A stretch of DNA of 39,986 bases from Candidatus Spechtbacterales bacterium (GTDB taxonomy: Bacteria > Patescibacteriota > Minisyncoccia > Spechtbacterales > 2-12-FULL-38-22), in NCBI GenBank assembly GCA_040902285.1, contig JBBDXP010000009.1, positions 1-39,986 of the forward strand, given 5' to 3'. This document shows, piece by piece, positions 4,547 through 35,871 of the stretch (position 1 is the first letter of the stretch; the number at the start of each line of letters is the position of its first letter). The notes beneath the pieces are model-generated. The model did not search any database and was not told where the DNA came from. It saw only the letters and a program-made list of their open reading frames with translations. A program made the translations under genes and the position numbers.

Positions 4547-5221
4547 ATGGTTAGCAAACTCGGCCCTCTTCTTGTAAAGAAGGGGGTAAATACAATTAAA
4601 AAGATAAAAACCAGAAGCGTAAAAATACGCTTTGTTATCGGTTTAAGAAAATTTAAAACCTTGCGTATTTTGCCCAAGGTTTTGGTTGTTTTGGCCGGTA
4701 TGGCCTTTATACTTTCTGCCCAGTATTCTTTGGCTTATTACAATATTAATGCACTAGATTTAATATACGGCAGGTCTGTGTTTGTGAATGTTCCGGATTT
4801 TTCCGAAAATAGTGTGGATACGGCCATACAAAAACCAAGTCCGGCTTCTTATCTTGTCGGCGGAAACGCTTTTCTTGCGATATCTCCGCCTCCTATTGTA
4901 GTGCTTGAACCCACATATTCGGTCGAGAGAACCGTACTTATACCCATTACCGCTTATTCATCTACTACGGACCAAACAGACGCAAATCCGTTCATTACGG
5001 CTTCGGGAAGTCATGTGCGGGACGGCATAGTGGCTGCAAATTTTTTGCCCATTGGGACTAAAGTAAAAATACCGGAATTATATGGAGATAAAGTGTTTGT
5101 GGTGGAGGATAGGATGAATAAACGCTATTGGAACAAAATGGATATTTGGATGTCCACTAGGGCAGAGGCAAAAGCATTCGGGTTAAAGTATGTAAATGTG
5201 GATGTGATTCAGGAAGTGTAA
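4547..5221 (+). CDS. Membrane-anchored 3D-domain (MltA/YuiC-like) cell-wall protein
   Basis: An N-terminal TM helix is followed by a C-terminal 3D-domain signature: TASG...DGIVAANF...PIGTKVKIPELYGDKVFVVEDRMNKRYWNKMDIW. The start codon is uncertain. Confidence 0.65.
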   Translation: MVSKLGPLLVKKGVNTIKKIKTRSVKIRFVIGLRKFKTLRILPKVLVVLAGMAFILSAQYSLAYYNINALDLIYGRSVFVNVPDFSENSVDTAIQKPSPASYLVGGNAFLAISPPPIVVLEPTYSVERTVLIPITAYSSTTDQTDANPFITASGSHVRDGIVAANFLPIGTKVKIPELYGDKVFVVEDRMNKRYWNKMDIWMSTRAEAKAFGLKYVNVDVIQEV

Positions 5222-7271: not shown

Positions 7272-8033
7272 CTAGCTGTCCGAACTCTCCTCTGAGACCT
7301 CGGCGGCCTCAGTTGTCTCCGGAGCGGTCTCCGCCGAGGCCTCCGAAGAGGTCTCATTGGCATGCCGCGCCTGTCGGAGAAGGCGCTTCTCGTCGCGGAC
7401 GCTGAAGTACTCCATGAGCACTCGGGCGCCCTTCACTCGGCCCTCATTCCGCATCTGCTCGGCAGCTGCGGAAACGAGGTCGTTTCCGAGGTTGACGTGC
7501 AGCCACTCCTTGCCGTTCTCGGACTTCGGCACGATGATCTTGCGATCCTCGGTGCCGTAGTTGGCAAGAGCGGTGTGGTTCAGCCCTTCGACCTCCAGCG
7601 CTTGCCGGAGCTTGGCGGACTTGAAGCCCACATCGAGGAGGTTCTGTCCGGATGTCCGGGCGGCCGCGAACAGCGACTGCACCGGAACTCGTCCGCTCAG
7701 AACTGGAACCACGAGACGGAAGACCACCTGCGCGCGGGACTGCTCGTTGAGCTGGTCCATGCGGTTCTGGAGATCCTCGAACTCCTCCGGCTGCTCTTCG
7801 TGCGGACGGCGCGTCGTGATGCGCTTTGCCGCGTTCAGGGCAGCGAAGAAGGGATTCTCGGAACCCTGTCCCGAAGGAGCACGGTTGCCGATGCTGGCGC
7901 GCGGGGCCCTGGCTGGTGCCTTGGCCTCGCTCTCGCTCGAACCAGAGATCTGGTTCTCCTGCATCTGCGTCTGCAGGTTCTCGATCTGCTCCGGAGTGAT
8001 CTCCTTGGGGGAGACACTTCTCTTGCTAGCCAT
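7272..8033 (-). CDS. Hypothetical protein encoded in a GC-rich (~60%) island, probable horizontally acquired gene
   Basis: A GAAGGAGG RBS lies 7 nt before the ATG (MASKRSVSPKE...). The ORF has strong GC3 codon bias unlike its neighbours, an acidic S/E/T-rich C-terminus, and no family I can recognise. The long plus-strand ORFs over the same region are typical GC-rich antisense artefacts. Confidence 0.6.
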   Translation of the reverse strand: MASKRSVSPKEITPEQIENLQTQMQENQISGSSESEAKAPARAPRASIGNRAPSGQGSENPFFAALNAAKRITTRRPHEEQPEEFEDLQNRMDQLNEQSRAQVVFRLVVPVLSGRVPVQSLFAAARTSGQNLLDVGFKSAKLRQALEVEGLNHTALANYGTEDRKIIVPKSENGKEWLHVNLGNDLVSAAAEQMRNEGRVKGARVLMEYFSVRDEKRLLRQARHANETSSEASAETAPETTEAAEVSEESSDS

Positions 8034-8108
8034 AATTACCTCCTTCAAGGTTGGCTATCTGACCGATGTCGGCGCTTTTGCGCCTTAAGTTCACTGGGAA
8101 CTGCAGTA

Positions 8109-8137
8109 ATATTAGCATATTTACTAAAAAATGTCAA
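8109..8137 (-). promoter_or_regulatory. Sigma70-type promoter for the GC-rich gene (TTGACA-17-TAATAT)
   Basis: On the minus strand: TTGACA (8137-8132), the 17-nt spacer ttttttagtaaatatgc, then TAATAT (8114-8109). Confidence 0.6.
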
Positions 8138-8155
8138 CATTAGTTGACATTTTTT
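8126..8155. promoter_or_regulatory. Perfect palindrome AAAAATGTCAAC-atta-GTTGACATTTTT: rpsA terminator overlapping the -35, candidate operator
   Basis: The 12-bp arms are perfectly inverted around a 4-bp spacer. With the minus-strand T-run the palindrome works as a terminator for rpsA, and one arm contains the TTGACA -35 of the downstream gene. Confidence 0.55.
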
Positions 8156-14841: not shown

Positions 14842-15213
14842 ATGCTGAACATAAAAAATTTATTTTATACAGTTCTGTTGCTTGTTTTAGTTGTTTCGGC
14901 CAATTCCGCGGATGCCGTTGTAGAAATGAACGGCGGAGGAGGAGGATCGGGGGGAACCACAATAAGATTGCCCAATCCTCTTAAGGCCTCTAATTTTAAC
15001 CAGCTTTTGGAGTCGGTGCTGAACCTGCTTTTGGTTTTTGCCATTCCTCTGTATGCCCTTATGGTGGTTATAGCGGGCTATTATTTTCTTTTCGGGGGGC
15101 AAAATCCGGCAAACAGAGTCAAATCATTGACTATATTTAAATATGCGACCATAGGCCTTGTATTTTTGCTTTTTTCCAGAGCTATTGTTGCACTTATACA
15201 AGGTTCGTTATAA
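14842..15213 (+). CDS. TrbC/VirB2-like pilin-family small membrane protein
   Basis: A signal peptide, a Gly-rich stretch and two C-terminal TM helices with FLFGGQNPANRVK, which is shared with the three downstream paralogs. Confidence 0.55.
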   Translation: MLNIKNLFYTVLLLVLVVSANSADAVVEMNGGGGGSGGTTIRLPNPLKASNFNQLLESVLNLLLVFAIPLYALMVVIAGYYFLFGGQNPANRVKSLTIFKYATIGLVFLLFSRAIVALIQGSL

Positions 15214-15300
15214 AATAAGATTAGGAGATGGGGGTGTGAGATACAAACATCCCTAATTTAAAAAGGTCGTTTTTATTCAAAAAATAAAAACAAAATATTT

Positions 15301-15789
15301 ATGAAAACAAAAACATTAACCAATGTATCAAGAATAGCGACGGTTGCATTTTTGTTGGCAGCGTTTTCCTTAATGCTTGCCGGAAATGTGTTGGCGCACG
15401 GAAACCACAGCGCCACAACAGACAAGTGTTCCTTAAGGGCGACTGTAAGCGCAACCGAGGCGAATGATTTGACCGGAAAGACCGTGGGAACGCACGCACC
15501 AAGCACAACGGGAGGCCTTGACCTCGTGGACCCGAATGTTGCCGGGGATCATGCCCTTATTTGCACATACGGACTTATTAAGTTCGTTACAAATGTTTTG
15601 CTTGTAACGGTGCTTGTGGTTGCGACATTGCTTATCGCTTACGCCGCATTTCTGTTTGTTACAGCGGGCCAGAGCCCGGAAAAAAGAGGCAAAGCACGAG
15701 ATTTTCTTATCTTTGCCATTGTCGGTTTGGTTATAGCAGCGGTAGCAAGCTTGATACCCACCATAGTTCGTGGAATTATCGGAGTGTAA
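15301..15789 (+). CDS. TrbC/VirB2-like pilin-family protein, paralog 1
   Basis: Signal peptide (…LAHG), a ~70-aa exposed region with two Cys, then two TM helices (AAFLFVTAGQSPEKRGKARDF). A terminator hairpin follows. Confidence 0.6.
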   Translation: MKTKTLTNVSRIATVAFLLAAFSLMLAGNVLAHGNHSATTDKCSLRATVSATEANDLTGKTVGTHAPSTTGGLDLVDPNVAGDHALICTYGLIKFVTNVLLVTVLVVATLLIAYAAFLFVTAGQSPEKRGKARDFLIFAIVGLVIAAVASLIPTIVRGIIGV

Positions 15790-15813
15790 TTGCTTTAAGC
15801 GATTCAATCCCAA

Positions 15814-15842
15814 AAACACCCCTTAGCGGGGTGTTTTTGTTA
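15814..15842 (+). terminator. Rho-independent terminator
   Basis: aaacacccc-ttagc-ggggtgttt followed by ttgtt. Confidence 0.7.
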
Positions 15843-15939
15843 TAGGGGTGAAAACGGGGTTGTATTGCAATCAATATTTGTGTAAAATAAAATTATCATT
15901 GATTTTATCGATTTTAAAATACTTATAAGTAAAATAATT

Positions 15940-16425
15940 ATGATAAAAATATTAAAAGCGCCAAAAGCCATTATTGTAACATTTGTTTTAGCGGGAATAC
16001 TTTTTGGTACGGTTCCCGGTGTGTTGGCTCATGGAACACACACAACGTCGTTAGCAGGCAGCGGGTATTGTCTGTTAAGAGTTACCGTTTCTGCCGGTGA
16101 CGCGCAACAACTTACGGGCAGATCTGTGGGTACGCACCCCGCCGGTTACAGGCTTAGTTTAACTGAGCCAACCATAGGTGGAGAACACGCGCTGATATGC
16201 GCCTACGGCCTTATCGGATTTATAACAAATGTGCTCCTTATATTTATACTTGTGGTTGCTGCGGCGTTTATCGCTTATGCCGCGTTTCTGTTTGTTACAG
16301 CGGGCGCCAATCCGGCCACCCGGACGAAAGCCAGGGACTTTTTCCTGTATGCCGTTATAGGTTTGATTGTGGCTCTTTTGGCAAGCCAGATCCCCACCCT
16401 TGTCAGGGGAATTCTCGGAGTATAA
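15940..16425 (+). CDS. TrbC/VirB2-like pilin-family protein, paralog 2 (divergent exposed region)
   Basis: Same architecture as paralog 1. The TM region is conserved and the exposed region has diverged (YCLLRVTVSAGDAQQLTGRSVGTHPAGYRLSL...). Confidence 0.6.
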   Translation: MIKILKAPKAIIVTFVLAGILFGTVPGVLAHGTHTTSLAGSGYCLLRVTVSAGDAQQLTGRSVGTHPAGYRLSLTEPTIGGEHALICAYGLIGFITNVLLIFILVVAAAFIAYAAFLFVTAGANPATRTKARDFFLYAVIGLIVALLASQIPTLVRGILGV

Positions 16426-16451
16426 AAATTAATTATTAAATAAAAATTAAC

Positions 16452-16928
16452 ATGACAAAAATTACGAAAATATCAAGAATTGTCATTGTTGCCTTCGCAC
16501 TTGCCGGTCTTCTTGTGGCACCAAGCGTGTTGGCGCACGGAAGCCACACCGCTACAACAAACAAGTGTTCCTTAAGGGCGACTGTAAGCGCAACCGAGGC
16601 GAATGATTTGACCGGAAAGACCGTGGGAACGCACGCACCAAGCACAACGGGAGGCCTTGACCTCGTGGATCCGAATGTTGCCGGGGATCATGCCCTTATT
16701 TGCACATACGGATTTATTAAGTTCGTTACAAATGTTTTGCTTGTAGTTATTCTTGTTGTGGCATCTCTGCTTATCGCTTATGCCGCATTTCTGTTTGTTA
16801 CAGCCGGCGGGAATCCGGCCAATAGAGAGAAAGCGCGTTCCTATCTTATATTTGCGGTTATAGGCCTTGTTGTTGCTGTTGTGGCAGCGCTTATTCCAAC
16901 CATTGTCAGAGGAATCATCGGGGTATAA
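16452..16928 (+). CDS. TrbC/VirB2-like pilin-family protein, paralog 3
   Basis: Carries a ~190-bp tract nearly identical to paralog 1 (16558-16745 versus 15421-15608). Confidence 0.6.
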   Translation: MTKITKISRIVIVAFALAGLLVAPSVLAHGSHTATTNKCSLRATVSATEANDLTGKTVGTHAPSTTGGLDLVDPNVAGDHALICTYGFIKFVTNVLLVVILVVASLLIAYAAFLFVTAGGNPANREKARSYLIFAVIGLVVAVVAALIPTIVRGIIGV

Positions 16929-17017: not shown

Positions 17018-17473
17018 CTATCGAAGCAACCTTACGGTTATTGTAATGGTAGTATTTTCTCCATTGAGAGAGCGCACGCGGAAAATTCCTGTGCTTTCTC
17101 CAAGCCAAACAGGTGCGCGATTTGTGTTATCCACAATCTCAGTTCCGTCAATGAACTGAATTTTAATGATAGAGCCCTTTTCGGCAAATATCCAAAATTG
17201 GTCCGTTGTGACAGGAACGGTTATCCATCCGCTCCAGCATCCGGGCCTTGCGGTTACAACCATTCTGCGCTGGTCATCGTCCATTTGGGTATGTCTGTAT
17301 CCGTGACACCAGATATTCGCTTCTGCTTGCGAAGAATTTCCCGTTAAACTGTCTAAACCGCCGTTATCGGCTATTTCCTGGCGCCCCAGCGCGAGGAACA
17401 CAATAACGGCTCCCGTGAGCAGATACCACCAAAACTTGCCTATTCCGTTGCCGTTAGCTTTCATCAGGCGCAT
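17018..17473 (-). CDS. Membrane-anchored small protein, possibly an NfeD-like partner of the SPFH protein
   Basis: An N-terminal TM helix is followed by a beta-rich C-terminal domain. The ORF overlaps the upstream SPFH gene by 20 nt, which argues for an operon. The NfeD assignment is tentative. Confidence 0.45.
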   Translation of the reverse strand: MRLMKANGNGIGKFWWYLLTGAVIVFLALGRQEIADNGGLDSLTGNSSQAEANIWCHGYRHTQMDDDQRRMVVTARPGCWSGWITVPVTTDQFWIFAEKGSIIKIQFIDGTEIVDNTNRAPVWLGESTGIFRVRSLNGENTTITITVRLLR

Positions 17474-25571: not shown

Positions 25572-25721
25572 TTTTTGTAGATTACTATATTGTTGTATGC
25601 TTAACAACTGAACAAAGTTGACTTATGACTATTTTTCAGTAAAATATATAGGTGGCACTGGTCCCATCGTCTTGCAGCCTGCTCTTTGTAATCCAAAATC
25701 AATTTGACGGAGCGAATTTTA

Positions 25722-25832: not shown

Positions 25833-25907
25833 GGTCCCATCGTCTAGTCCGGCCTAGGACGCCAGGTTTTCATCCTGGTAACACGGGTTCGAATCCCGTT
25901 GGGACCG
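25833..25907 (+). tRNA. tRNA-Glu(TTC)
   Basis: ggtccca/tgggacc acceptor, 3-bp D stem gtc/gac with loop tagtccggcctag (the E. coli Glu-like architecture), anticodon loop ttttcat, T-loop ttcgaat. The tRNA is flanked by a perfect 15-nt complementary leader and trailer (aataattaactttgc / gcaaagttaattatt). Confidence 0.85.
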
Positions 25908-26055
25908 CAAAGTTAATTATTTGAGATTTTAGGGAAACAAAAAAGCACGCTATCTGCCGCGTTGCTCCTCCTCGAAATAGCGCTATTGCTATTATTCCTT
26001 CGTCGTTGCGCCTTGCATCTAGCATACTTTTTTGTTTTCAAATTGATTTTAGATT

Positions 26056-26131
26056 GCAAAGAGCAGGCTAAGGCCTAGGACGCCAGGTTTTCATCCTGGT
26101 AACACGGGTTCGAATCCCGTTGGCTCTGCCA
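26056..26131 (+). pseudogene. tRNA-Glu-like pseudogene: 52-nt exact copy of the tRNA-Glu 3' portion joined to a non-matching 5' side
   Basis: 26072-26123 is identical to 25850-25901 of tRNA-Glu. The acceptor 3' strand (tggctct-g-cca) does not pair with the upstream sequence. The inverted repeat caaagagcaggct (26057-26069) matches agcctgctctttg (25676-25688), which sits next to a 13-nt tRNA-Glu 5' fragment (25660-25672). Confidence 0.6.
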
Positions 26132-26244: not shown

Positions 26245-27615
26245 ATGCCGCCGAAGAATTCCTTAAATTCTCAGCCGGAAGATTTTACGATTAAGCTTGC
26301 CGACGGCCTTCCTCCAAGATGGCAGAAATTTGAGGAAGAGATTAAAGGTATAGTTTTTGACCAGGAACGCCCGATACGAAAGGTAACACGCACTCTTATG
26401 GCCTTGGAAGCGGGACTGCATGATCCGCGCAGGCCTCCAGACCCATTTATATTTGCCGGTCCGCCCGGTTCAGGCAAGACATATCTTGCAGAAATCATAG
26501 CCAAGGTTTGGCTAGGCGAACCTAAGCGAGAAGGCGAGATTGGTCCTCTTATCGTTTTGTCGGGAGAAAACTTCGGCCGTGAGCATGAGGGCTCTACCCT
26601 AAAGGGCGCCCCGCCCAGCTATATCGGGTTTGGACAAAAAACTCCTTTGGAAGATACAGGTGTTTTTGACAAGATGAGGCGTTTGGAGAAATTGTGGGAA
26701 ATTGCTTTTGATTGGGAATATGAAATGGAGAAAAAAGGATTCCGTTCGTTGTCGCCGTCCGCGAGAGATGAGTTTTTTGAACGCGCCAAGAGAATGATGT
26801 ATAAAAAAGCCAAAAGTATGGGGCCGTATCGATCGGTATTGCTGGTTGATGAATTTGAAAAAATGCACATTTCGGTCCAAAAACAATTTCTTGGCATATT
26901 GTCCAGCGGCGGCTTAAAACTGCATTCCGGCAAGTTTGTTGATTTTAGGGGCACTCTTATAATATTTACCACCAACATAGGTTCCGAAGAAATCAACAAA
27001 CTGCTTGAAAACAGGGGAATCGGCTTTGTTTCCACAACTCTTAGCGGAAAATCTCAGGATCAGATAAACCAGCGCATCTATAAGACGACACGCTCAAGAA
27101 TAGAAAAAGATATAGATCCGGCACTCTTTAGCCGCATAGGACATGACGGCATAGTGGTATTCCACGCGCTTCCGAGAGAAACTCTTTCCAAGATACTGGA
27201 TTATGAGATTACCCGCGTGCAGGCAAAACTTTTGAGTGAGGATCTTGGCCCCGTTAGAATTTATGTTTCCGAAGAAGCCAAAGAATTGATATTGAATGGC
27301 GCTGATACTCCGCGCGAGGGAGCCCGGCAGATAGGGCGCCTTGTGACCAAATACATATCTGATCCGCTTGCGCGGGTAATAGAGTCAGATGAACTTAGAG
27401 GCGGGGATGAAGTGTTAATTGCCGTCGAAGGTTCTAAAATACAGCTTAGGCGGCTTCCAAGGCCTACTAGCCCGAAATTGCCACCCCTCCGGCGTCCGGC
27501 AAGAACAGGCGATATGGACACCTTGGAAAAAGAAATGTTTGATGATTTGACAAAAGAATTCAAAAATTTGCTCAAAGAAAAATACCCCATTGTAGCACCC
27601 GAAGAAGAAGATTAA
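26245..27615 (+). CDS. Single-module Clp/Hsp100 D2-type AAA+ ATPase
   Basis: An AAGGAGG RBS precedes the ATG. Walker A GPPGSGKT, KGAPPSYIGFG (matching the IGAPPGYVGY block of ClpA/B/C D2), Walker B LLVDEFEKMH, FVDFRGTLIIFTTNIGS, the VVFHALPRETLSKI sensor region and a GAR sensor-2 are all present. There is no N-domain, no D1 module and no ClpX zinc finger. Confidence 0.75.
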   Translation: MPPKNSLNSQPEDFTIKLADGLPPRWQKFEEEIKGIVFDQERPIRKVTRTLMALEAGLHDPRRPPDPFIFAGPPGSGKTYLAEIIAKVWLGEPKREGEIGPLIVLSGENFGREHEGSTLKGAPPSYIGFGQKTPLEDTGVFDKMRRLEKLWEIAFDWEYEMEKKGFRSLSPSARDEFFERAKRMMYKKAKSMGPYRSVLLVDEFEKMHISVQKQFLGILSSGGLKLHSGKFVDFRGTLIIFTTNIGSEEINKLLENRGIGFVSTTLSGKSQDQINQRIYKTTRSRIEKDIDPALFSRIGHDGIVVFHALPRETLSKILDYEITRVQAKLLSEDLGPVRIYVSEEAKELILNGADTPREGARQIGRLVTKYISDPLARVIESDELRGGDEVLIAVEGSKIQLRRLPRPTSPKLPPLRRPARTGDMDTLEKEMFDDLTKEFKNLLKEKYPIVAPEEED

Positions 27616-27623
27616 AGTTCCAC

Positions 27624-27656
27624 AATCCCGCTGATATACAAATTAGCGGGATTTTT
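27624..27656 (+). terminator. Rho-independent terminator
   Basis: aatcccgct-gatatacaaatt-agcgggatt followed by tttt. Confidence 0.7.
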
Positions 27657-27671
27657 ATTAACTCCTTCCAC

Positions 27672-27861
27672 CGAAAAGCCCCGATATTCTTCCCTCGAAC
27701 CGCGGTCCGATTTCTCCGGCGGAAATCGTCCGCTTCCTCTCAGCGCAAAATCCTTCGAAAACCGTATTTGCCTGTCAAGGTCCGTCCTTGACAGGCAAAT
27801 CTCAGGAACCAAGCTTTTGCGCTTCCGAGAGATTCGCGGATAAGAATATCGGAGCTTTTCG
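27672..27861. mobile_element. MITE-like ~190-bp non-coding element with 20-bp terminal inverted repeats (19/20 match) and a central perfect 15-bp palindrome
   Basis: TIR-L is cgaaaagccccgatattctt (27672-27691). TIR-R is aagaatatcggagcttttcg (27842-27861), whose reverse complement cgaaaagctccgatattctt matches TIR-L at 19 of 20 positions. The centre carries atttgcctgtcaagg-tccgt-ccttgacaggcaaat (27766-27800). The element is GC-rich relative to the genome. The homologous intergenic region upstream of the Lon-like gene (33231-33343) lacks it. Confidence 0.5.
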
Positions 27862-27879
27862 ACGAGCGGGGATGAGGGG

Positions 27880-27908
27880 TTGACTCTCATGCTGTGGATA
27901 TCTATAGT
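27880..27908 (+). promoter_or_regulatory. Sigma70-type promoter TTGACT-17-TATAGT, part of a ~70-bp module duplicated at 33273-33343
   Basis: ggggttgactctcatgc…gatatctatagttaacctagattgatagtaccttgaaaaaggagg is near-identical to the sequence upstream of the Lon-like gene. AGGAGG lies 5 nt before GTG 27947. Confidence 0.65.
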
Positions 27909-27946
27909 TAACCTAGATTGATAGTACCTTGAAAAAGGAGGACGAA

Positions 27947-29842
27947 GTGGCCGAAGAACCTCAAATACAAAATACTCAAAAGAATTCTAAAGAATTCGAT
28001 GTACTTATCGCAATATCCACAGAACTGCGGGAAAAAGCGAACGGTATGTTAAGTGAGGATTTTGTCCGTCATATAGACGATATAACAGAAAAAGCGGATG
28101 AACTTGAGACCGCGCGAAAACTGCAGGCGCAGGAGGCGTCGAGGGATATCCAGCAAAATAAGCTGGCCTATCTTAATAAAATAAGAGAACTTAGCATAGA
28201 ACTAAATCAACTTAGCCGAATGCTGAGCGCTCTTAAGGAACAGCCCCCGCTGATGTCTGCCAAATTTGTTAGATTTGTCCGTTATCATGAAATAGAAGAA
28301 TACGGCAAGAAGGTAAAGATTCCAGTTGTGGATATTGTAAATTCCAGCGGTTCCAACGCGCGCGTTTTTGTGCATCCGGAGCTGGATGTTTCCAATGTTA
28401 AGTATGGACAGCGCGTTCTTGTAAGCGCGGGCAACATGACTATAATGGAAATTTTGCAAGAATTCGAGGTTATAGGACAAGAAGCATATGTCGAGGCTCT
28501 CTTGGAACCCGATTTTGAAGGTAAGCGTGTTTTGGTATCGGAAGGCCAGCTGGACATGAAAATAGTGGCGCATCTGTCCTCTTCCGTGGAAGATAAAGAA
28601 ATGGAAGAAGGCACTAGGGTTCTTGTAGATACAAAGACATCTTTGGTCGTGGAAGTGCTTCCCGAGCATGAGAGCCGCCGTTACATTGTGGGCGAAATCC
28701 CAAATGTCACTTTTTCTGATATCGGAGGCCTGGACGGCATTATCGCGAGGATAGACGAGCATGTTATATGGCCTATAATCTATCCCGATGTGTGGGAAAA
28801 AATAGGATTGGATTCTCCAAAAGGATTTGTGCTTGCCGGCCCGCCGGGTGTGGGCAAAACCATGATTGCCAAGGCGTTGGTAAACTATCTTAATGAAAAA
28901 CTCGAGGAAGTTCATGGCAAACCCGTACAGGGCCGTTTCTTCCACATTGCCGGACCTGAAATTCAAAACAAATATGTGGGCGAGACCGAACGCATTATGC
29001 GCGAGATATTTGCCCAGGCGGCAAAGAATGCTTCTCCGCTAAGCCCCTCCTTGGTATTTTTTGACGAAGCGGACGCGCTTTTCCCAAGACGCGGTTCGGG
29101 AGTCTCCTCCGATGTTGAAAAGACGAATGTTACCCAATTTACAGCCCTTATGGACGGCCTTGAGACCAGGAGCAACATTATAGTTGTTTTGGCGACAAAC
29201 CGCCCCGAACTTTTGGATCCCGCGGTCATACGGCCCGGGCGCTCGGACTTCACTGTGGATGTTCCGCGGCCCAACGAAGAAGCCGCCAAAGCCATTTTTG
29301 CCAAATACATAAGGCCCGAATGGGGGCAGATAAATCCTAAATACGATCAGGAGGTTTATATTCCAAAAGACAAAAAGGGCAATACGCGCGTTGATGACTC
29401 CGGAAGTGATATAAAACTTTACTTCGGACACAAGCCGCAAGAGGTTGTGGATTATCTTATCGCTAAAGCAACAGCGCGCATGTACGATCTGGACAATCCA
29501 AGAAACAAATTTATCAAACTCAAGTTTAGGGATTATTCGGAAAAAACTCTCCGTTACGGCGATTTTGCCTCCGGCGCTATGATTAAAAATATAGTGGATC
29601 GTGCCAAGAGATTTTCCGTTCATGATCATAAGGTTGGAGGTGAAGAACTCGGGATAACTCTCGTACACCTGTACAAAGCCATTGAAGAGGTCTTTTCTGA
29701 GCTTAGGGGTCCTTCCGGAGCCGGCGATTCCAGCACCTGGCTTGAAATAGAAGGCCATGTCCGCGGAAATAACGTTACGGGAATAGAATTTCTATCCAGA
29801 GATGCGGATGATTCTGACGATGATGAAGAGCCCATTTTATAA
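27947..29842 (+). CDS. ARC/Mpa-like (proteasome-associated-ATPase family) AAA ATPase
   Basis: An N-terminal coiled-coil (…LSIELNQLSRMLSALKEQ…) is followed by a tandem OB-fold inter-domain (…NARVFVHPELDVSNVKYGQRVLVSAGNMTIMEIL…). The single AAA module has Walker A GPPGVGKT, KYVGETERIMREIF, and Walker B/arginine finger VVLATNRPELLDPAVIRPGR. The C-terminus …DDEEPIL has no GQYL/HbYX docking motif. Confidence 0.8.
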   Translation: MAEEPQIQNTQKNSKEFDVLIAISTELREKANGMLSEDFVRHIDDITEKADELETARKLQAQEASRDIQQNKLAYLNKIRELSIELNQLSRMLSALKEQPPLMSAKFVRFVRYHEIEEYGKKVKIPVVDIVNSSGSNARVFVHPELDVSNVKYGQRVLVSAGNMTIMEILQEFEVIGQEAYVEALLEPDFEGKRVLVSEGQLDMKIVAHLSSSVEDKEMEEGTRVLVDTKTSLVVEVLPEHESRRYIVGEIPNVTFSDIGGLDGIIARIDEHVIWPIIYPDVWEKIGLDSPKGFVLAGPPGVGKTMIAKALVNYLNEKLEEVHGKPVQGRFFHIAGPEIQNKYVGETERIMREIFAQAAKNASPLSPSLVFFDEADALFPRRGSGVSSDVEKTNVTQFTALMDGLETRSNIIVVLATNRPELLDPAVIRPGRSDFTVDVPRPNEEAAKAIFAKYIRPEWGQINPKYDQEVYIPKDKKGNTRVDDSGSDIKLYFGHKPQEVVDYLIAKATARMYDLDNPRNKFIKLKFRDYSEKTLRYGDFASGAMIKNIVDRAKRFSVHDHKVGGEELGITLVHLYKAIEEVFSELRGPSGAGDSSTWLEIEGHVRGNNVTGIEFLSRDADDSDDDEEPIL

Positions 29843-29859
29843 AATCGCACATTCTTTTG

Positions 29860-29887
29860 ACCCCCGACTGCAAAGCGGGGGTTTTTA
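29860..29887 (+). terminator. Rho-independent terminator
   Basis: acccccg-actgcaaa-gcgggggt followed by ttttatttt. Confidence 0.75.
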
Positions 29888-29898
29888 TTTTAATAAAA

Positions 29899-29927
29899 TT
29901 GACACACGACCGCCAAACGACTATACT
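29899..29927 (+). promoter_or_regulatory. Sigma70-type promoter TTGACA-17-TATACT upstream of the dop-like gene
   Basis: ttgaca cacgaccgccaaacgac tatact. The 5'UTR attagtaccttaaaaaggagg shares the agtacctt(g/a)aaaaaggagg motif with the ARC and Lon-like leaders. Confidence 0.6.
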
Positions 29928-29962
29928 TAGTGCAATTAGTACCTTAAAAAGGAGGCATAAGC

Positions 29963-31579
29963 ATGCCTGACAAGCCGCGCAAGATAATAATTGGCGCTGA
30001 AACCGAATATGGAATATTTGCGACAGAAAACGGCCAAATACTTGATAATGAGGCCTTAGGACTTGTGAGAGAGGCCGAAAATGTAACCAAAGATTTTTTC
30101 CTTCGCCCGCTTGAGGGCATAGAAGATACCGAAGAACATGAAAATCTTGATTCTATGACTGATGAGGATTTTTTGCGCCAACCGGAAAGTTATCAAAGTT
30201 CCGGAGAAAGGCAGAGGCGCGGCCTTACCGGTTTTGTTCTCTCAAACGGATGCAGATTCTATGTTGATATGGGTCATCCGGAGTATTCAATTCCCGAAAC
30301 AACAAATCCCATGGATGCTCTTGTCGCGCAAAAAGCGGGAGACAGGATAGTTGAGCTTTGCAGAAGATTATTTGAGGAAAGATTAAAGAACGAAAATAGG
30401 AATATTTCGATTCGTTTGGATAAAAACAATAGCGACGGTAAAGGGAACAGCTATGCCGCGCACGAAAATTATTCTCTTACCCCCGAAACCTTTACGGAAA
30501 TAACTAATCGTTATGGGTCAAGAGAGTTGGAAGATATTGTGTTGAATTTTTTCACCACGCGCCAGATAGTGACAGGGGCCGGAAAGGTTGGATACGAGAC
30601 AGGAAGACCCGTTCCATACCAAATAAGCCAGCGTGCGGATTTTATTGAAAAGGAAAAAAGCTTAAACACGGTCGAAAAGAGGGGGATAATAAATTTGCGG
30701 GACCATTCCTATGCCGGATACGATGATGTCCGCAGATTGCATGTTATATGCGGAGACGGCAACATGTCCGAATTGTCTCTGTATCTTAAATTCGGCACAA
30801 CAGCGCTTATTTTAATGATGCTTGAAAGCGGATTTATACAGAGCGAAGGAAGTTCTGTTTTGATTCGCATGCAAAATCCCGTCCGCTCGTATAAAAATGT
30901 ATCAAGAGACCTTTCCCTGGGCCACAAGATATTTTTTGAGGACGGTTCTAAAAGGACCGCTTTAGCCATACAGGAGGAATTTTATTCTCTGGCCAAAAAA
31001 TTTACCGATGGAAACGATATTGATCCTATATGGCGCGATGTCGCAGACAAGTGGGAAAAGGTTTTGCACGGTCTTGCCGGGGAAAGAAATTCTGATGAAT
31101 GGGCCGGCAATCTGGACTGGGTTAAAAAAGAAACCATACTCAAACGGCATCAGGAGAAAAAAGGAGTTTCTCCGCTTCATCACACATGCCGCGCCGTGGA
31201 TCTTCAGTACCACAACATAAATCCCGAAAAAAGCATTTATTGGCGCCTGGCTGAAAGAGGAGACATACTTTTGTTTGCCACCAAAGCCGATATAGAGAGG
31301 GCTATTAATGAGCCACCTTCGGACACAAGGGCGTGGTTCAGAGGGCAAACCGTTAAACAGTTTAGAAATGTTCTGGACGGTATCGGCTGGCAATATATTA
31401 AATTTGCCGATAAATACATTTTTATGGGCAATCCATTTTCTGGTTCAAAAGAAGCAGCAGAGAGTATTTTTGCGGGGGTTTCTTCTCCGGAAGAATTTAT
31501 TGAAAGATTGTCGAAAGCAATTGAACGGAAGGAGAGTGGATTGGAGGGCTTTAGTGTCGGAGAAGGGTGGTTGATATAA
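29963..31579 (+). CDS. dop: Pup-ligase-family protein, Dop-like (depupylase/deamidase-type)
   Basis: The N-terminal IIIGAETEYGIF strand (Dop-type E-Y-G) is followed by a ~45-aa insertion before the conserved RFYVDMGHPEYS block, consistent with a Dop loop. The carboxylate-amine-ligase fold is retained at 538 aa. The Dop versus PafA call is an inference. Confidence 0.7.
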   Translation: MPDKPRKIIIGAETEYGIFATENGQILDNEALGLVREAENVTKDFFLRPLEGIEDTEEHENLDSMTDEDFLRQPESYQSSGERQRRGLTGFVLSNGCRFYVDMGHPEYSIPETTNPMDALVAQKAGDRIVELCRRLFEERLKNENRNISIRLDKNNSDGKGNSYAAHENYSLTPETFTEITNRYGSRELEDIVLNFFTTRQIVTGAGKVGYETGRPVPYQISQRADFIEKEKSLNTVEKRGIINLRDHSYAGYDDVRRLHVICGDGNMSELSLYLKFGTTALILMMLESGFIQSEGSSVLIRMQNPVRSYKNVSRDLSLGHKIFFEDGSKRTALAIQEEFYSLAKKFTDGNDIDPIWRDVADKWEKVLHGLAGERNSDEWAGNLDWVKKETILKRHQEKKGVSPLHHTCRAVDLQYHNINPEKSIYWRLAERGDILLFATKADIERAINEPPSDTRAWFRGQTVKQFRNVLDGIGWQYIKFADKYIFMGNPFSGSKEAAESIFAGVSSPEEFIERLSKAIERKESGLEGFSVGEGWLI

Positions 31580-32976
31580 TGAAAGACAGAGCCGTTGGTA
31601 TAGAAAATGAATTTGGCGTAATGCTTAAGGATGATTTTGGCAATTTTAGTTCTCAAGAGAACGAAATGCTGGCCATTAACAGCATTCCTCGTGAAAATTT
31701 GCCTCAAGGGGGTGGAATGTCCAACGGACGTTTCTGGCTTGCCAACGGAGGCAGTGTATACATAGACCTGGGCCATCCGGAATATGCTTCTCCCGAATGT
31801 CTCAGGTTGCGTGATCTGATTGCTGTAAGCCGCGCGGGAGAGAGGATTTGTTCCCGTATGTTCCATTACGCTGTTAGTAATGGAAGGTATTGGCAGCTTT
31901 TTAAGAATAATTTGGAAATTAGCGCCGAAGGAGGAGAAGGAAATTCGTTCGGATGTCATGAAAATTATCTCATTCACGGATATAAGCCGGAAGACGAGGT
32001 CATGCATACGCATCTTCTTCCCTTTCTGATAACTCGGCAGATATTGGACGGAGCGGGATGGTGGGCTTCGGACGGCAGATTTTCATTTTCTCAAAGAGCG
32101 TTGATTTTGGGCACCGTGGCGGCAATGGGTACCACGGAGGGGATAAGCCGTCCCATCATAAATCTTAGAGACGAGCCCCATATACAGAATAGGGAAGGAA
32201 TGAGCAGGTTGCATCTCATTTTGGGCGATGCCAACATGCTGGACTGGGCCTTGTATCTTAAATTCGGTACCACCTCCCTTGTACTGGCCATGCTTGAAGA
32301 AGGCCATATATTCAGGGATACGTGCCAAAATCCCATTGAAGCCATGCGCAGAGTGGCGTTTGATAAGACCGCGCGGAAACGGCTATTGAAATTTAGCGGG
32401 CGCGGGAAAATGAGCGCGCTAGAAGTGCAGGAATTTTACCTTGCCAAAGCCGAAAAATACGTCTCTATAACTGATTTTGCAAGCTACGAAAGCAGATTGG
32501 AAGCGCTCCAAACCGTGTGCATGTGGCGCGAGGCCTTAAATGCGATAAAAAATCGCGATACCGCATGGATGCTCGGACGGCTTGATTGGGCAACAAAGCT
32601 GTATCTTGGAAACAAAGAGTGGTCGAACAAAAAAAATTCGGGCGCTAGTGAAATGGACATCAAAAAACGCGTTGATATTCTTTATCACGCCGTGACCGAC
32701 ACAAGATTGCGCGACCGAATATATGCCAAGTGGCCGAACAGGCAGCTGGTCGGCGGACAGGAAATTGAGTATATGATAAATAATCCCCCACTGGACACCC
32801 GCGCGAGAATAAGGGCGTTGTTTATTGATCTCTGCTCAAAAAAACAATTCGGCACGGATAAGGACATATCTGTGAATTGGTCCAAAATAGTATATAGAGG
32901 CAAGGCGTTTAACTTGGGATACCCTTTAGACAAGGATAATCTCGAGGTTGAGAAACTTATCAGAAATCTCTTGTAA
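31579..32976 (+). CDS. pafA: Pup-ligase-family protein, PafA-like
   Basis: VGIENEFGVM (PafA-type E-F-G) with no loop insertion; SVYIDLGHPEYASPE; 466 aa. Its ATG overlaps the dop-like stop as TAATG, which suggests translational coupling. The track ORF begins at an upstream GTG (31567). Confidence 0.7.
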   Translation: MKDRAVGIENEFGVMLKDDFGNFSSQENEMLAINSIPRENLPQGGGMSNGRFWLANGGSVYIDLGHPEYASPECLRLRDLIAVSRAGERICSRMFHYAVSNGRYWQLFKNNLEISAEGGEGNSFGCHENYLIHGYKPEDEVMHTHLLPFLITRQILDGAGWWASDGRFSFSQRALILGTVAAMGTTEGISRPIINLRDEPHIQNREGMSRLHLILGDANMLDWALYLKFGTTSLVLAMLEEGHIFRDTCQNPIEAMRRVAFDKTARKRLLKFSGRGKMSALEVQEFYLAKAEKYVSITDFASYESRLEALQTVCMWREALNAIKNRDTAWMLGRLDWATKLYLGNKEWSNKKNSGASEMDIKKRVDILYHAVTDTRLRDRIYAKWPNRQLVGGQEIEYMINNPPLDTRARIRALFIDLCSKKQFGTDKDISVNWSKIVYRGKAFNLGYPLDKDNLEVEKLIRNLL

Positions 32977-33035
32977 AATTGTAAAATAATCTGTAATAAT
33001 AAGAGCAAATGCAACCGGAAAGGAGGATTGCCGTG

Positions 33036-33230
33036 CCGCCGCAAGAGCAGATAAGGCCTAATCGCAAAAGGGACGATTCCAGCGAAGACCAGGAATATGT
33101 CCGCAAAGATAAAGATGATGAAGAAGATTCCTCCGAAGAGGAGCTAGACGATGAGGAGCTGAACATCGACGATCTTTTGGAAGAATCAGAAGAACTTACA
33201 AAGAAGTATAAGCAGAAAGGCGGAGAGTAA
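33036..33230 (+). CDS. pup: Prokaryotic ubiquitin-like protein Pup homolog, C-terminal GGE
   Basis: A GAAAGGAGG RBS lies 6 nt before GTG 33036. The 65-aa product is acidic and low-complexity, ending …DDLLEESEELTKKYKQKGGE. This resembles the actinobacterial Pup C-terminus (…DDLLDEIDDVLE…YVQKGGQ/E) that binds Mpa and is ligated by PafA. The track ORF (33009) adds 9 N-terminal residues from an ATG that has no RBS. Confidence 0.75.
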   Translation, partial: PPQEQIRPNRKRDDSSEDQEYVRKDKDDEEDSSEEELDDEELNIDDLLEESEELTKKYKQKGGE

Positions 33231-33241
33231 GCAGTACTTTT

Positions 33242-33266
33242 AGCCCCGTTTTAACGGGGCTTTTTT
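33242..33266 (+). terminator. Rho-independent terminator
   Basis: agccccg-tttta-acggggc followed by tttttt. Confidence 0.75.
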
Positions 33267-33274
33267 ATTGGGGG

Positions 33275-33303
33275 TTGACTCTCATGCCCTAGATATCTAT
33301 AGT
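33275..33303 (+). promoter_or_regulatory. Sigma70-type promoter TTGACT-17-TATAGT (second copy of the module at 27877-27947)
   Basis: ggggttgactctcatgccctagatatctatagttaacctagattgatagtaccttgaaaaaggagg. AGGAGG lies 7 nt before GTG 33344. Confidence 0.65.
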
Positions 33304-33343
33304 TAACCTAGATTGATAGTACCTTGAAAAAGGAGGTGGTATT

Positions 33344-35818
33344 GTGCCTGCCGAAGAAAGAGACGGTATACGGGAGTTAAATCCTGAAGAGCTTTGCCGG
33401 AAATGGCAGCCCGAAGAGTTTAATTCCGAAGTTGAGCCCGATACGGGATTTTCCAACGGAGTTTGGCTGGGTATCAGCCAAGATCGCTTGTTCAAAGCGC
33501 TTGATTTCGGTTTGAGCAGAGACGCACCGGACCATCATATATTTGTTTCTGGAATAACGGGCCCAACGGTTTTGGAGGCCCTTGAGAAGTTTGTTCTGGA
33601 TTTTGAAAACAAGAACACTGGAGAACTGTCCCAGTTGCGGGATTGGTGCTATGTATATAATTTTGACAATCCCCGCAACCCCGTTGCGATTCCTCTGCCC
33701 GCGGGCAGAGGAAAGGTACTGCGCTTTAAGATGAAAAAGAATCTGTCTCGTTTGCAGGATGCCATACCAAATGCTCTCAACAGCGAGAATGTCGCGCAGG
33801 AACATTTGCGGGCGACCAGTGAATTCAATGATTGGTTTTCGGCCGCGCAGGAGAGCACAAGGAAAAGAGCTGCCGAAAACCAAGAGGCGATAGTGGAGTT
33901 CGGTGATTCCGGCTTTGACGTCAACATCATTCCGTGGCGCTATAAGAGTTTGAACGAAGAAGAAAGGGAAGAGCTGGGCAGAACCCTCGCTTCCAAAGAA
34001 AAACAGCGCGACAGGAACACGATAAGCAAATACATGCCCGAGATTATAGCAATACGGAATGAATTTCTCAAAAGAGATGCAAAGTTGCGCGAGGAATTAA
34101 ACCGAATAAATCAAAGTGCCATAAAAGAAGCCATACAAGGGGTGTTTAGAAGTTTGCGCGGAAAACTCAGCGAAAACAGCAGAAGTACCGCTCTTACAAG
34201 ATATATAGACAGCGTTGAGAAATTTGCCACAGAAAATTACCCAATTTTTCTTCAAGGCAAAAATAAAACGGTACCTAGAGTGGCCAAACAGGAGCCTGAC
34301 ATCTTTATTCCCTGGGAAGTAAATGTGTTTGTCGATAACAGCAACGCCAAAGGCCCGCCCGTTGTCATAGAGCTTGATCCGACATTCGAAAACCTTGTCG
34401 GAAGGATTGAAAAAGTGGTAATGGCGGGTGGAATGGTTTCAACGGACCATACCAGAATAGCAGCCGGTTCGCTCGCGCAGGCAAACGGCGGATATCTGCT
34501 TTTGAATATTCGCGATGTTCTTGTGCGGCCGGGAGCTTACGAAGCTCTTAAGAACGCTGTAAAGAATAAAACTCTGGAAATTTCCGAACTCATGTCCGCT
34601 ATGGGTTATGGTTCAATGTCTTCTCTGGATCCGACACCCATTCCGCTTAATCTTAAGCTTGTAGTTACGGGCATTCGAGGTTTGTGGGAGTATCTTTCAC
34701 ATGCGGATCCGGAATTTTCAAGCATATTTAAGATAAAGGCGGATGTAAATCCGGATGTTGATCGCAGTCCCGACGAGGCATCGGCGTGGGCCCGGTGGAT
34801 GACTAAGCAGTATTCCGAACACGGGCTTCTGCCGCTTGAAAACGATGCCATGGGGCGGATAATTGATTACGCTTCGCGTGTTGCCGGTTCCAAAAAGCGT
34901 ATAGCCACTAATTTTGGGCTTTTGCAGGATTTGATGAGCGAATCTTCTTATGTTGCCAAAAAAGAAGGTGCTGAAAGAATAAGCGCCCAACATGTGCGTA
35001 GTGCCATAGCGGACAGAAAATTCCGACTCAGTTTGTATCAGGAACGCCGTCTTAGGAGCATACAAGAAAGCCACACGCTGATAGATGTAGAGGGTGGCGC
35101 GGTTGGTCAAATTAACGGCTTAGTTATTTTTGGGGGCAGGACTGAAGATGCTTGGTTTGGCGGTCCTAGCCGTATAACGGCGCAGGTTTCTATGGGAAAG
35201 CCGGGTTTTATCAATATTCAGCGAGAATCCAAAATGTCCGGACCTTATCTGGATATGGCCGACGCCATAGTCAACCGTTATCTTATGGGTACATATGCTA
35301 AGAAGTATCCCATTGCTTTACAGATAAGCATCGCCTTTGAGCAATCATATGGCGGGGTGGACGGAGACAGTGCCTCTCTCGCGCAGTTGTATGCCACGCT
35401 TTCGGCTGTGGCCGAAGTGCCAATACGCCAGGATGTTGCCATAACGGGTTCTCTTAACCAAAGAGGGGCCGTGCAGGTCATTGGCGGAGTTAACGATAAG
35501 ATAGAGGGATTTTTTGACGCATGCCTTGCCAAAGGCGGGCTTTCGGGAACCCAGGGAGTTATTATTCCCGAAGGCAATGTTTCTGATTTGATGCTTCGCG
35601 AAGATGTGGTTGAAGCTGTCCAAAATGGCAGGTTCCATGTTTGGGCAGTAAGCCATGTGAGCGGAGGTATCAAGATTCTACTGGGTATGCCCGCAGGAGA
35701 GCGTGATAACGAAGGCAAATTCCCCGAAGGTACATTTAACGCGATTGTGGATGAAAAACTGCAAAGTTATGCCCGCAACGCGAAAAACTTCTTTAAAGAT
35801 GAAGAAGCGGAAAAATAA
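33344..35818 (+). CDS. Lon-like (S16 family) serine protease with a degenerate AAA-like domain lacking Walker A (LonC-like)
   Basis: The C-terminal protease domain has DGDSASLAQLYATLSAV (compare the Lon PKDGPSAG catalytic Ser block) and ITGSLNQRGAVQVIGGVNDKIEGF (compare the Lon TGEITLRGRVLPIGGLKEK catalytic Lys block). No GxxxxGK[ST] motif occurs anywhere in the 824 aa. Confidence 0.7.
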   Translation: MPAEERDGIRELNPEELCRKWQPEEFNSEVEPDTGFSNGVWLGISQDRLFKALDFGLSRDAPDHHIFVSGITGPTVLEALEKFVLDFENKNTGELSQLRDWCYVYNFDNPRNPVAIPLPAGRGKVLRFKMKKNLSRLQDAIPNALNSENVAQEHLRATSEFNDWFSAAQESTRKRAAENQEAIVEFGDSGFDVNIIPWRYKSLNEEEREELGRTLASKEKQRDRNTISKYMPEIIAIRNEFLKRDAKLREELNRINQSAIKEAIQGVFRSLRGKLSENSRSTALTRYIDSVEKFATENYPIFLQGKNKTVPRVAKQEPDIFIPWEVNVFVDNSNAKGPPVVIELDPTFENLVGRIEKVVMAGGMVSTDHTRIAAGSLAQANGGYLLLNIRDVLVRPGAYEALKNAVKNKTLEISELMSAMGYGSMSSLDPTPIPLNLKLVVTGIRGLWEYLSHADPEFSSIFKIKADVNPDVDRSPDEASAWARWMTKQYSEHGLLPLENDAMGRIIDYASRVAGSKKRIATNFGLLQDLMSESSYVAKKEGAERISAQHVRSAIADRKFRLSLYQERRLRSIQESHTLIDVEGGAVGQINGLVIFGGRTEDAWFGGPSRITAQVSMGKPGFINIQRESKMSGPYLDMADAIVNRYLMGTYAKKYPIALQISIAFEQSYGGVDGDSASLAQLYATLSAVAEVPIRQDVAITGSLNQRGAVQVIGGVNDKIEGFFDACLAKGGLSGTQGVIIPEGNVSDLMLREDVVEAVQNGRFHVWAVSHVSGGIKILLGMPAGERDNEGKFPEGTFNAIVDEKLQSYARNAKNFFKDEEAEK

Positions 35819-35843: not shown

Positions 35844-35871
35844 AGGCCCGCGCAAAGCGGGCCTTTATTTT
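35844..35871 (+). terminator. Rho-independent terminator
   Basis: aggcccgc-gcaaa-gcgggcct followed by ttatttt. Confidence 0.75.

Follow-up and report, generated by a model that had tools for sequence, protein, structure and literature searches.

The sequence analysed here is a 40-kb window (the whole stretch of DNA presented above, part of an 88.5-kb contig) from a metagenome-assembled genome (MAG) of Candidatus Spechtbacterales, a group of the Candidate Phyla Radiation (CPR; phylum Minisyncoccota, formerly CPR/Patescibacteria). Judging from sequence comparisons, it carries a genuine though divergent set of the pupylation genes encoding Pup, PafA, Dop and ARC, followed by the gene of a Lon-family protease of the LonC type. 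Our preferred reading, held with roughly even confidence, is that of a proteasome-less five-gene pupylation module in which the LonC-type protease most likely replaces the 20S core. Pupylation is, to our knowledge, the sole bacterial ubiquitin-like degradation tag; it is tied to the 20S proteasome, and its purpose where the proteasome is missing is only partly understood. An earlier note on this DNA had reported six co-oriented genes in a CPR/Patescibacteria-like genome, with a Lon-family protease in the position of prcBA and no proteasome subunit gene in 40 kb. All six open reading frames (ORFs) are indeed present on the plus strand and belong to the claimed families (Pfam, NCBIfam), the source is confirmed, the protease gene adjoins pup directly on its 3' side, and no sizeable ORF of the window matches PF00227 (20S alpha/beta). 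The conserved unit, as far as comparison of related loci tells, is one of five genes (ARC-Dop-PafA-Pup-LonC-like), not six:

27947..29842, + strand: ARC/Mpa-like AAA+ unfoldase (N-terminal coiled coil, double oligonucleotide/oligosaccharide-binding (OB) domain, AAA domain, C-terminal domain, acidic tail)
29963..31579, + strand: Dop-like depupylase/deamidase (538 aa; Dop-typical N-terminal insertion; PF03136 E 1e-118)
31579..32976, + strand: PafA-like probable Pup ligase (465 aa; PF03136 E 7.5e-90; GTG 31567 also open)
33033..33230, + strand: Pup (65 aa, acidic, predicted disordered, highly charged, ends KYKQKGGE)
33344..35818, + strand: LonC-type Lon-like protease (824 aa; Ser676-Lys719 dyad; degenerate AAA-like domain; long helical insertion)

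The Dop-like and PafA-like products both match PF03136 and are ranked reciprocally by the NCBIfam models, which bears out their placement in the PafA/Dop family: the former scores 370 bits with TIGR03688 (Dop) vs. 285 with TIGR03686 (PafA), the latter 265 with TIGR03686 vs. 226 with TIGR03688. Among solved structures the Dop-like protein matches Acidothermus Dop best (4b0r, E 3e-87), and the PafA-like protein, whose gene overlaps the end of dop, aligns over its whole length with Corynebacterium glutamicum PafA (4b0t) and is without the Dop insertion. Its identity to actinobacterial PafA is at most ~37%, and NCBI names these ligases 'PafA2 family'. Taken singly, the Pup sequence stays below threshold (PF05639 E 1.3e-3, 20 bits vs. 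27 for gathering); a profile built on nine such ORFs of related loci matches Pup chains only among PDB entries (E 3.4e-5 to 2.4e-4), in agreement with the proposed identity, and the orthologous small ORFs in loci L002, L005 and L009 end in QKGGE or QKGGQ. The likely start of pup is GTG 33033, preceded at a spacing of 6 nt by a perfect AGGAGG (33021-33026), and gives 65 aa; of the ORF given earlier as 33036-33230 the size therefore stands and the start does not, since 33036 is a CCG codon. All NCBIfam scores lie under the equivalog cut-offs (bits/cut-off: PafA 265/551, Dop 370/492, ARC 369/505, Pup 16/41), so the proteins are divergent members of their families. At L094:13094-13276 a Pup-like ORF lies between two PafA-type paralogues and ends in ...ASNKQTNAE, without a Gly-Gly motif; a second Pup lacking GGE was noted in Leptospirillum (PMC3511204).

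The best NCBIfam model for the ARC protein is TIGR03689 ('proteasome ATPase'). Its Pfam domains are Prot_ATP_ID_OB_C and AAA, with a weak OB_N match, and residues 134-619 align to Mycobacterium tuberculosis Mpa (5kwa, 7ljf) from the OB domains through the C-terminal domain. A longer ORF opens at TTG 27929; from the spacing of the Shine-Dalgarno (SD) sequence and a duplicated leader the start is probably GTG 27947, as suggested by the repeat similarity (described below) reaching the first codons (M-A-E-E vs. M-P-A-E-E). No GQYL/HbYX proteasome-docking motif was found at the C-terminus, which ends ...DDSDDDEEPIL, and the ATPases of proteasome-less actinobacteria are likewise without GQYL (PMC3511204). 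The tails end in EEPIL, EEAIL, AEEDD or GEEEL in the LonC-linked lineages and are acidic in all five of them, compared with none of nine ARC-like genes from pup loci without LonC. A C-terminal '[PA]IL' was considered as a conserved docking motif and rejected, as L009 ends in AEEDD and L094 in GEEEL; acidity alone is conserved.

By its domains and predicted fold, the protease of the cluster is a LonC-type enzyme with a degenerate AAA domain. Pfam finds LonC_helical (PF20437, E 3.5e-15), AAA_32, LonB_AAA-LID and Lon_C (E 7e-10), and the closest solved relative is LonC of Meiothermus taiwanensis (MtaLonC; MEROPS S16, Lon subfamily C; 4fwd, E 1.2e-78, ~25% identity). An AlphaFold2 model (mean predicted local distance difference test score, pLDDT, of 81.9) has its best fold match in LonC 8k8v over the full length (template modelling scores 0.70/0.79, 817 columns), with LonB as the next best. 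Ser676 (in GDSAS) and Lys719 align to the catalytic residues of MtaLonC, and the dyad is invariant. Also shared with MtaLonC are an AAA-like domain with a helical insertion and the lack of the Walker B Glu (GGYLLLN at that position in the window), and the window protein is predicted to work, like MtaLonC, without ATP and on unfolded substrates only. MtaLonC, however, keeps a Walker-A-like GxxxxGK and binds nucleotide, whereas the P-loop of the window protein reads GITGP-TV and those of the other Pup-linked proteases GLAGSISAP, GISGP-GG or GIDSP-DA, none with a Lys.

This loss sets the Pup-linked proteases apart from the wider LonC-like family, which occurs in many phyla at ~35-39% identity and mostly keeps a GxxGxG[KR] P-loop. 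In a simple neighbour-joining tree of 85 LonC-like proteins the five Pup-linked lineages form, together with locus L008, an exclusive clade; the P-loop Lys is missing in 6/6 clade members vs. 2/79 controls (77/79 keep G[KR]), and 29 signature positions, four of them acid-to-base reversals, mark the clade. A search with the clade alignment returned the broad LonC-like family and no CPR genome; its 80 loci, from other phyla, served as a negative control, and a Pup ligase lay near the LonC-like gene in none of them (flanks of ~10 kb). A search of genome contigs with the single PafA-like protein gave no match. For LonC proteases, of which solved structures exist and which are unable to unfold substrates on their own, we know of no physiological role or partner. 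By analogy, the Pup-linked LonC would have no ATPase activity, form a ring oligomer and accept unfolded substrates only. MtaLonC has no ATPase activity, degrades unfolded proteins only and was likened by its authors to a free 20S core (PMC3391209), and it has been reported as a chaperone too (PMC13069640). An enzyme of the LonC type, its AAA domain degenerate, would mechanistically need another protein, such as ARC, to unfold folded substrates for it. The L008 protease (L008:168-2636), which belongs to the same P-loop-less clade, is followed by recG.

The order ARC-Dop-PafA(-PafA')-Pup-LonC recurs in five divergent uncultured lineages, the window included; the pup-Lon neighbourhood is conserved, and its proteases form a clade of their own. 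In L001-L004 and L093, which come from independent JGI and ENA assemblies, the six-gene order and the flanks (tsaD and a glycosyltransferase, GT) are kept at 68-77% protein identity. More distant loci have ARC-Dop-PafA(-second PafA)-Pup-LonC without the neighbouring Clp-type ATPase gene: L005 (Dop 49% identical, three ligase paralogues, Pup ending QKGGQ), L009/L010/L102 (a 'Patescibacteria group' MAG, GCA_964573545.1; Dop 43%, Pup ending KYKQKGGE) and L094/L095 (Dop 46%, FtsH upstream, the Pup-like ORF ending KQTNAE). The flanks of L009 differ on both sides (Asp/Glu racemase, cation-efflux gene), as does the upstream flank of L094. Each lineage has one Dop-type and one or two PafA-type paralogues by NCBIfam ranking (checked in L005, L009 and L094). 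The same locus with CPR flanks is thus found in JGI, ENA and NCBI assemblies, and the cluster is not confined to one assembly, which speaks strongly against contamination.

In three other Spechtbacterales contigs (L108-L110) the backbone reads HSP20-PrsW-ValRS-TsaD, Clp-D2 ATPase, a variable slot, GT and RecG, with housekeeping proteins 60-75% identical to those of the window, and the slot holds PrkA-DUF444-SpoVR instead of the five Pup genes; these five, lonC included, have therefore been exchanged as a block. The slot between the Clp-D2 ATPase and GT-RecG (L108:10001-16847, L109:5642-14964, L110:10001-16593) encodes PrkA, DUF444 (YeaH) and SpoVR (YcgB), with a second PrkA in L109, and two protease-centred modules alternate at this one syntenic site.

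Two further arrangements of related genes were seen. Between uvrC and dnaJ-dnaK-grpE-hrcA, the loci L006:6545-17664 (GCA_030697755.1), L007, L011:10001-14774 and L012 have three to seven tandem Pup_ligase (PF03136) paralogues, near which no ARC, LonC or ORF ending in GG[EQ] is visible; this looks like an expansion of the ligase family. A second type of pup locus, in JGI metagenome contigs (L096-L107), is without LonC and encodes a short ARC-like ATPase (~490-505 aa, non-acidic C-terminus), Dop, Pup (ending Y[KR]Q[TQ]GGQ) and a second ligase. Several ORFs of 155-399 aa downstream of these loci are without any Pfam match, and no proteasome match (PF00227) was obtained in ten ORFs scanned downstream of L096-L106.

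Within the window, ARC and lonC are preceded by copies of one promoter/leader sequence, and dop by a related one. Promoter-like sites, hairpins and repeats were identified by consensus scans and repeat searches of the DNA:

27876..27941, + strand: promoter-like TTGACT-17-TATAGT with leader and SD, repeat copy 1, upstream of ARC
29899..29954, + strand: promoter-like TTGACA-17-TATACT with the shared leader motif GTACCTTAAAAAGGAG, upstream of dop
33271..33336, + strand: repeat copy 2, promoter/leader upstream of lonC
27624-27653: terminator-like hairpin after the Clp-D2 ATPase gene
33242..33261, + strand: terminator-like hairpin 3' of pup (stem of 8 bp, 6 of them GC; T run behind it)
35844..35864, + strand: terminator-like hairpin 3' of lonC (stem of 8 bp, 7 of them GC)

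The direct repeat before ARC and lonC is 66 nt long (63/66 nt identical, leader of ~30 nt), and its 45-nt core has exactly two sites in the window where none would be expected by chance. The leader motif GTACYTT(N0-3)AAAAGGAG has exactly three sites in the 40 kb, before ARC, dop and lonC, recurs before the same three genes in L001-L004 and L093, and has no further site among 110 loci; the Clp-D2 gene is not preceded by it. From the hairpins after the Clp-D2 gene, pup and lonC, four transcription units are predicted, namely clp-D2, ARC, dop-pafA-pup and lonC, the last three of which have one promoter/leader type in common. Hairpins also precede lonC in L005, L009 and L094.

Taking the gene identities, the conservation of the module, the clade specificity of the protease, its P-loop loss and the common promoter/leader as they were observed, we infer a pathway whose enzymatic steps and hand-over from ARC to LonC would run as follows. 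The PafA-like ligase would attach Pup (65 aa) through its C-terminal Glu to lysines of the substrate; because this Pup already ends in GGE, no deamidation would be needed. The Dop-like enzyme would take Pup off again, and in GGQ lineages such as L005 it would deamidate Pup too. ARC would bind Pup via its coiled coil and unfold the tagged protein with ATP, and the motor-less LonC-like Ser-Lys protease, by analogy with Meiothermus LonC, would cut the unfolded chain. For the hand-over, ARC could dock on the LonC ring, possibly by its acidic tail, or free unfolded chains to LonC. Coaxial docking of ARC on the LonC-like ring, perhaps through the acidic tail and clade-specific basic residues of LonC, is a tentative and rather doubtful proposal.

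Several observations weigh against a replacement of the 20S core by LonC. Adjacency and co-regulation do not prove that substrates are handed over, and lonC is not strictly co-transcribed with pup, because it has its own promoter and a preceding hairpin in all lineages examined. The leader motif was not found in L005, L009 and L094 and is confined to two closely related lineages, and the five lineages are not fully independent samples, as they are related CPR organisms, several with the GT-RecG flank. The exact C-terminus of ARC varies between lineages, and the correlation of its acidic tail with LonC is confounded by phylogeny, since the ARCs of the LonC-less loci constitute a shorter subfamily. 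The raw phmmer score of the PafA-like protein is higher to Dop than to PafA (199 vs. 151 bits), and its assignment as the ligase, made by profile ranking and architecture, is only moderately secure. Upstream of the L008 protease gene the contig extends for only 167 bp, in which no pup is found; the module there may have another arrangement, or the Pup-linked LonC clade can exist without an adjacent pup.

Corynebacterium offers another model: its pupylation works without a dedicated protease and disassembles ferritin (PMC8223512). On this model, which we consider possible though on balance somewhat unlikely here, pupylation would be non-degradative or loosely tied to proteolysis, with ARC remodelling proteins, Dop reversing the tag and the LonC-like protein acting as an independent quality-control protease or chaperone. 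Pupylation without a proteasome, in which ARC takes ferritin apart, is well documented (PMC3511204, PMC8223512), LonC-like proteins occur without Pup in many phyla (80/80 control loci), and proteostasis genes are common nearby, with HSP20, PrsW and FtsH in the window; the promoter-like site of lonC behind a terminator-like hairpin and the L008 protease gene, with no pup visible in 167 bp, fit as well. What such independence leaves unaccounted for is that the five genes stay together in five lineages despite the differing flanks of L009 and L094, that they are swapped as a block for PrkA-DUF444-SpoVR, that the linked LonCs are an exclusive clade which has lost the P-loop Lys, and that ARC and lonC have a near-identical promoter/leader in common.

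The protease could instead act on the tagging system itself, degrading free or excess Pup, or PafA or Dop, and so setting the level of pupylation. We know of no precedent for a protease of this kind. Pup, being predicted disordered and highly charged, would be a natural substrate of LonC, lonC lies directly 3' of pup with an intervening hairpin that could tune the product ratio, and LonC degrades unstructured polypeptides without ATP (PMC3391209). Co-regulation with ARC specifically and the correlation with its acidic tail are left unexplained by this idea, which we hold to be unlikely. A dispersed but ordinary Pup-proteasome system, in which a conventional 20S (prcAB) elsewhere in the genome takes the pupylated substrates, appears quite improbable. 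The search for 20S genes covered 40 kb of the 88.5-kb MAG contig, which leaves room for such genes elsewhere. The ARC is without GQYL, a trait of proteasome-less lineages (PMC3511204), known prcBA genes sit inside the pup locus (PMC2588565, PMC3511204), and PF00227 matched neither in the window nor in the ten ORFs downstream of other environmental pup loci. Pupylation being classically actinobacterial, the cluster might also have arisen by an error of assembly or binning, or have been acquired very recently from Actinobacteria or Nitrospirae. The probability of this is close to negligible: the identical locus type with CPR housekeeping flanks in independent JGI, ENA and NCBI assemblies effectively refutes it, the identity to actinobacterial PafA does not exceed ~37%, and the GC content of the module (0.44-0.47) fits that of the window (0.40-0.51).

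If LonC does replace the 20S core, the system would follow the logic of the actinobacterial Pup-proteasome system, in which a tagged protein passes through an unfoldase (coiled coil, OB domains) into a self-compartmentalising protease. The Mpa-Dop-Pup-PrcB-PrcA-PafA locus of M. tuberculosis encodes homologues of ARC, Dop, PafA and Pup, Pup has a ...QKGG[EQ] end and a DDLL helix region in both cases, and pup stands immediately 5' of the protease gene in actinobacteria (pup-prcBA) as it does here (pup-lonC) (PMC3511204). The differences lie in the LonC-type Ser-Lys protease in place of the Thr Ntn-hydrolase 20S, with no prcA/prcB in the 40 kb, the acidic tail of ARC for GQYL, the position of pafA 5' of pup, the CPR host and the sub-equivalog NCBIfam scores. 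C. glutamicum and related actinobacteria likewise keep Pup, PafA, Dop and ARC without a 20S, and with an ARC that has no proteasome-interaction motif (PMC3511204), so that the lack of a 20S alone is not novel. There, however, no dedicated protease is linked and the role is ARC-driven ferritin disassembly (PMC8223512), whereas the window has a specialised LonC clade beside pup and a promoter/leader that lonC has in common with ARC. MtaLonC, for its part, has no known partner unfoldase or tag system. With the two-component AAA+ proteases (ClpXP/ClpAP, HslUV, PAN-20S) the proposed arrangement would share a separate hexameric unfoldase that feeds a motor-less chambered peptidase, but here the peptidase would be a Lon-family ring with a dead AAA-like tier; with a hexameric LonC, the two rings would pair 6:6, and the docking is putative.

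Pup outside Actinobacteria (Nitrospirae, Verrucomicrobia, Planctomycetes, Deltaproteobacteria) was reported in 2008 as sporadic, with one or two ligase paralogues (PMC2588565). The pup genes there are linked to 20S genes; Plesiocystis and Rhodopirellula are exceptions, with a membrane protein as the linked partner (PMC2588565). A Lon-type partner of non-actinobacterial Pup loci ('UBact') is not described in the literature searched. A 2017 UBact report is said to list some Parcubacteria-type candidate phyla among those with Pup homologues. Pup genes in CPR are thus not new in themselves, the ligases being named already by NCBI. Our literature search returned no paper that links Pup to a Lon-type protease or treats pupylation in CPR/Patescibacteria, which suggests that what is new is the pairing of a Pup system with an alternative protease, of the LonC type. 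If ARC does dock on LonC, the two would make up a Pup-dependent two-component protease that evolved in ultra-small CPR bacteria, with LonC as the first non-proteasomal destination of Pup-tagged proteins and ARC as the first unfoldase to serve the ATPase-dead LonC family physiologically. The Pup-ARC-LonC module would join two puzzles, proteasome-less pupylation and the role of LonC, in a form testable with five small recombinant proteins; it would mean that some genome-reduced CPR bacteria retain an elaborate tag-based proteolysis system, and it suggests that evolution can recombine tag systems and protease cores.

The sixth gene of the cluster lies directly upstream of the module:

26245..27615, + strand: single-ring Clp/Hsp100 D2-type AAA+ ATPase (456 aa; ATG start; TTG 26221 also open)

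That this Clp-type ATPase, listed in the cluster by the earlier note, belongs to the Pup set was not borne out: it is absent from L009 and L094, two of the five lineages, stands beside PrkA-DUF444-SpoVR as a gene of the backbone in L108-L110, and is without the shared leader motif, for which reasons a part in the Pup system was rejected. By its distribution it is probably a separate backbone gene and not part of the module. The protein matches AAA_2 (E 2.4e-19) and ClpB_D2-small (E 1.4e-11), has its best solved matches in the D2 rings of ClpC1 and ClpB, and consists of the D2-type module alone, with no D1 ring or Clp_N; its scores with the NCBIfam ClpB/ClpA/ClpV models are ~1/10 of the cut-offs. 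Its GIGF aligns with the ClpP-docking LGF of ClpC1, and the GF pair of the [I/V/F]GF loop is invariant in 10 aligned members of the family, which has ~15 members, several of them named Spechtbacterales. An invariant loop of the ClpP-docking type makes a partner of the ClpP type probable, and the ATPase may be a minimal ClpC-like partner for ClpP. Between the pup-type and PrkA-type genomes the Clp-D2 gene is 41-42% identical, compared with 60-75% for its neighbours. Members of the family have a ~55-aa insertion between the pore-loop motif GAPPSYIGFG and Walker B, and a C-terminal tail that is usually acidic.

The flanks of the cluster are as previously described, with tsaD, a tRNA (tRNA-Glu) and a glycosyltransferase (GT2); at the GC content given above the context is not notably AT-rich, as it had been described. 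The remaining genes of the window are ordinary housekeeping genes, besides those for HSP20, PrsW and FtsH, and NCBI assigns proteins identical to window products (MEX2145022.1, MEX2145020.1) to a Candidatus Spechtbacterales MAG. PADLOC defence models gave only generic AAA matches for the two ATPases and none for Dop, PafA, Pup or LonC, and with no defence-system signal the reading of the locus as a defence island was rejected. Three ORFs of 151-261 aa have no Pfam match (4547-5221, 7272-8048, or 7362-8147 on the opposite strand, and 17018-17473), the products of 4547-5221 and 7272-8048 having no meaningful PDB sequence match either.

The tRNA-Glu(UUC) at 25833-25908 is followed 221 nt later by a second tRNA-like copy at 26060-26128, which ARAGORN missed; with Rfam RF00005 it reaches 35 bits and so passes the gathering score. 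A 52-nt stretch of the two is 100% identical (25851-25902 vs. 26072-26123), and long inverted repeats surround them, e.g., 25676-25707 with 26038-26069 (32 nt, 94%). Farther upstream, at 14842-16928, four successive small genes with weak TrbC/type IV secretion system (T4SS)-pilin matches lie 3' of a solute-binding-protein gene, an arrangement typical of CPR genomes.

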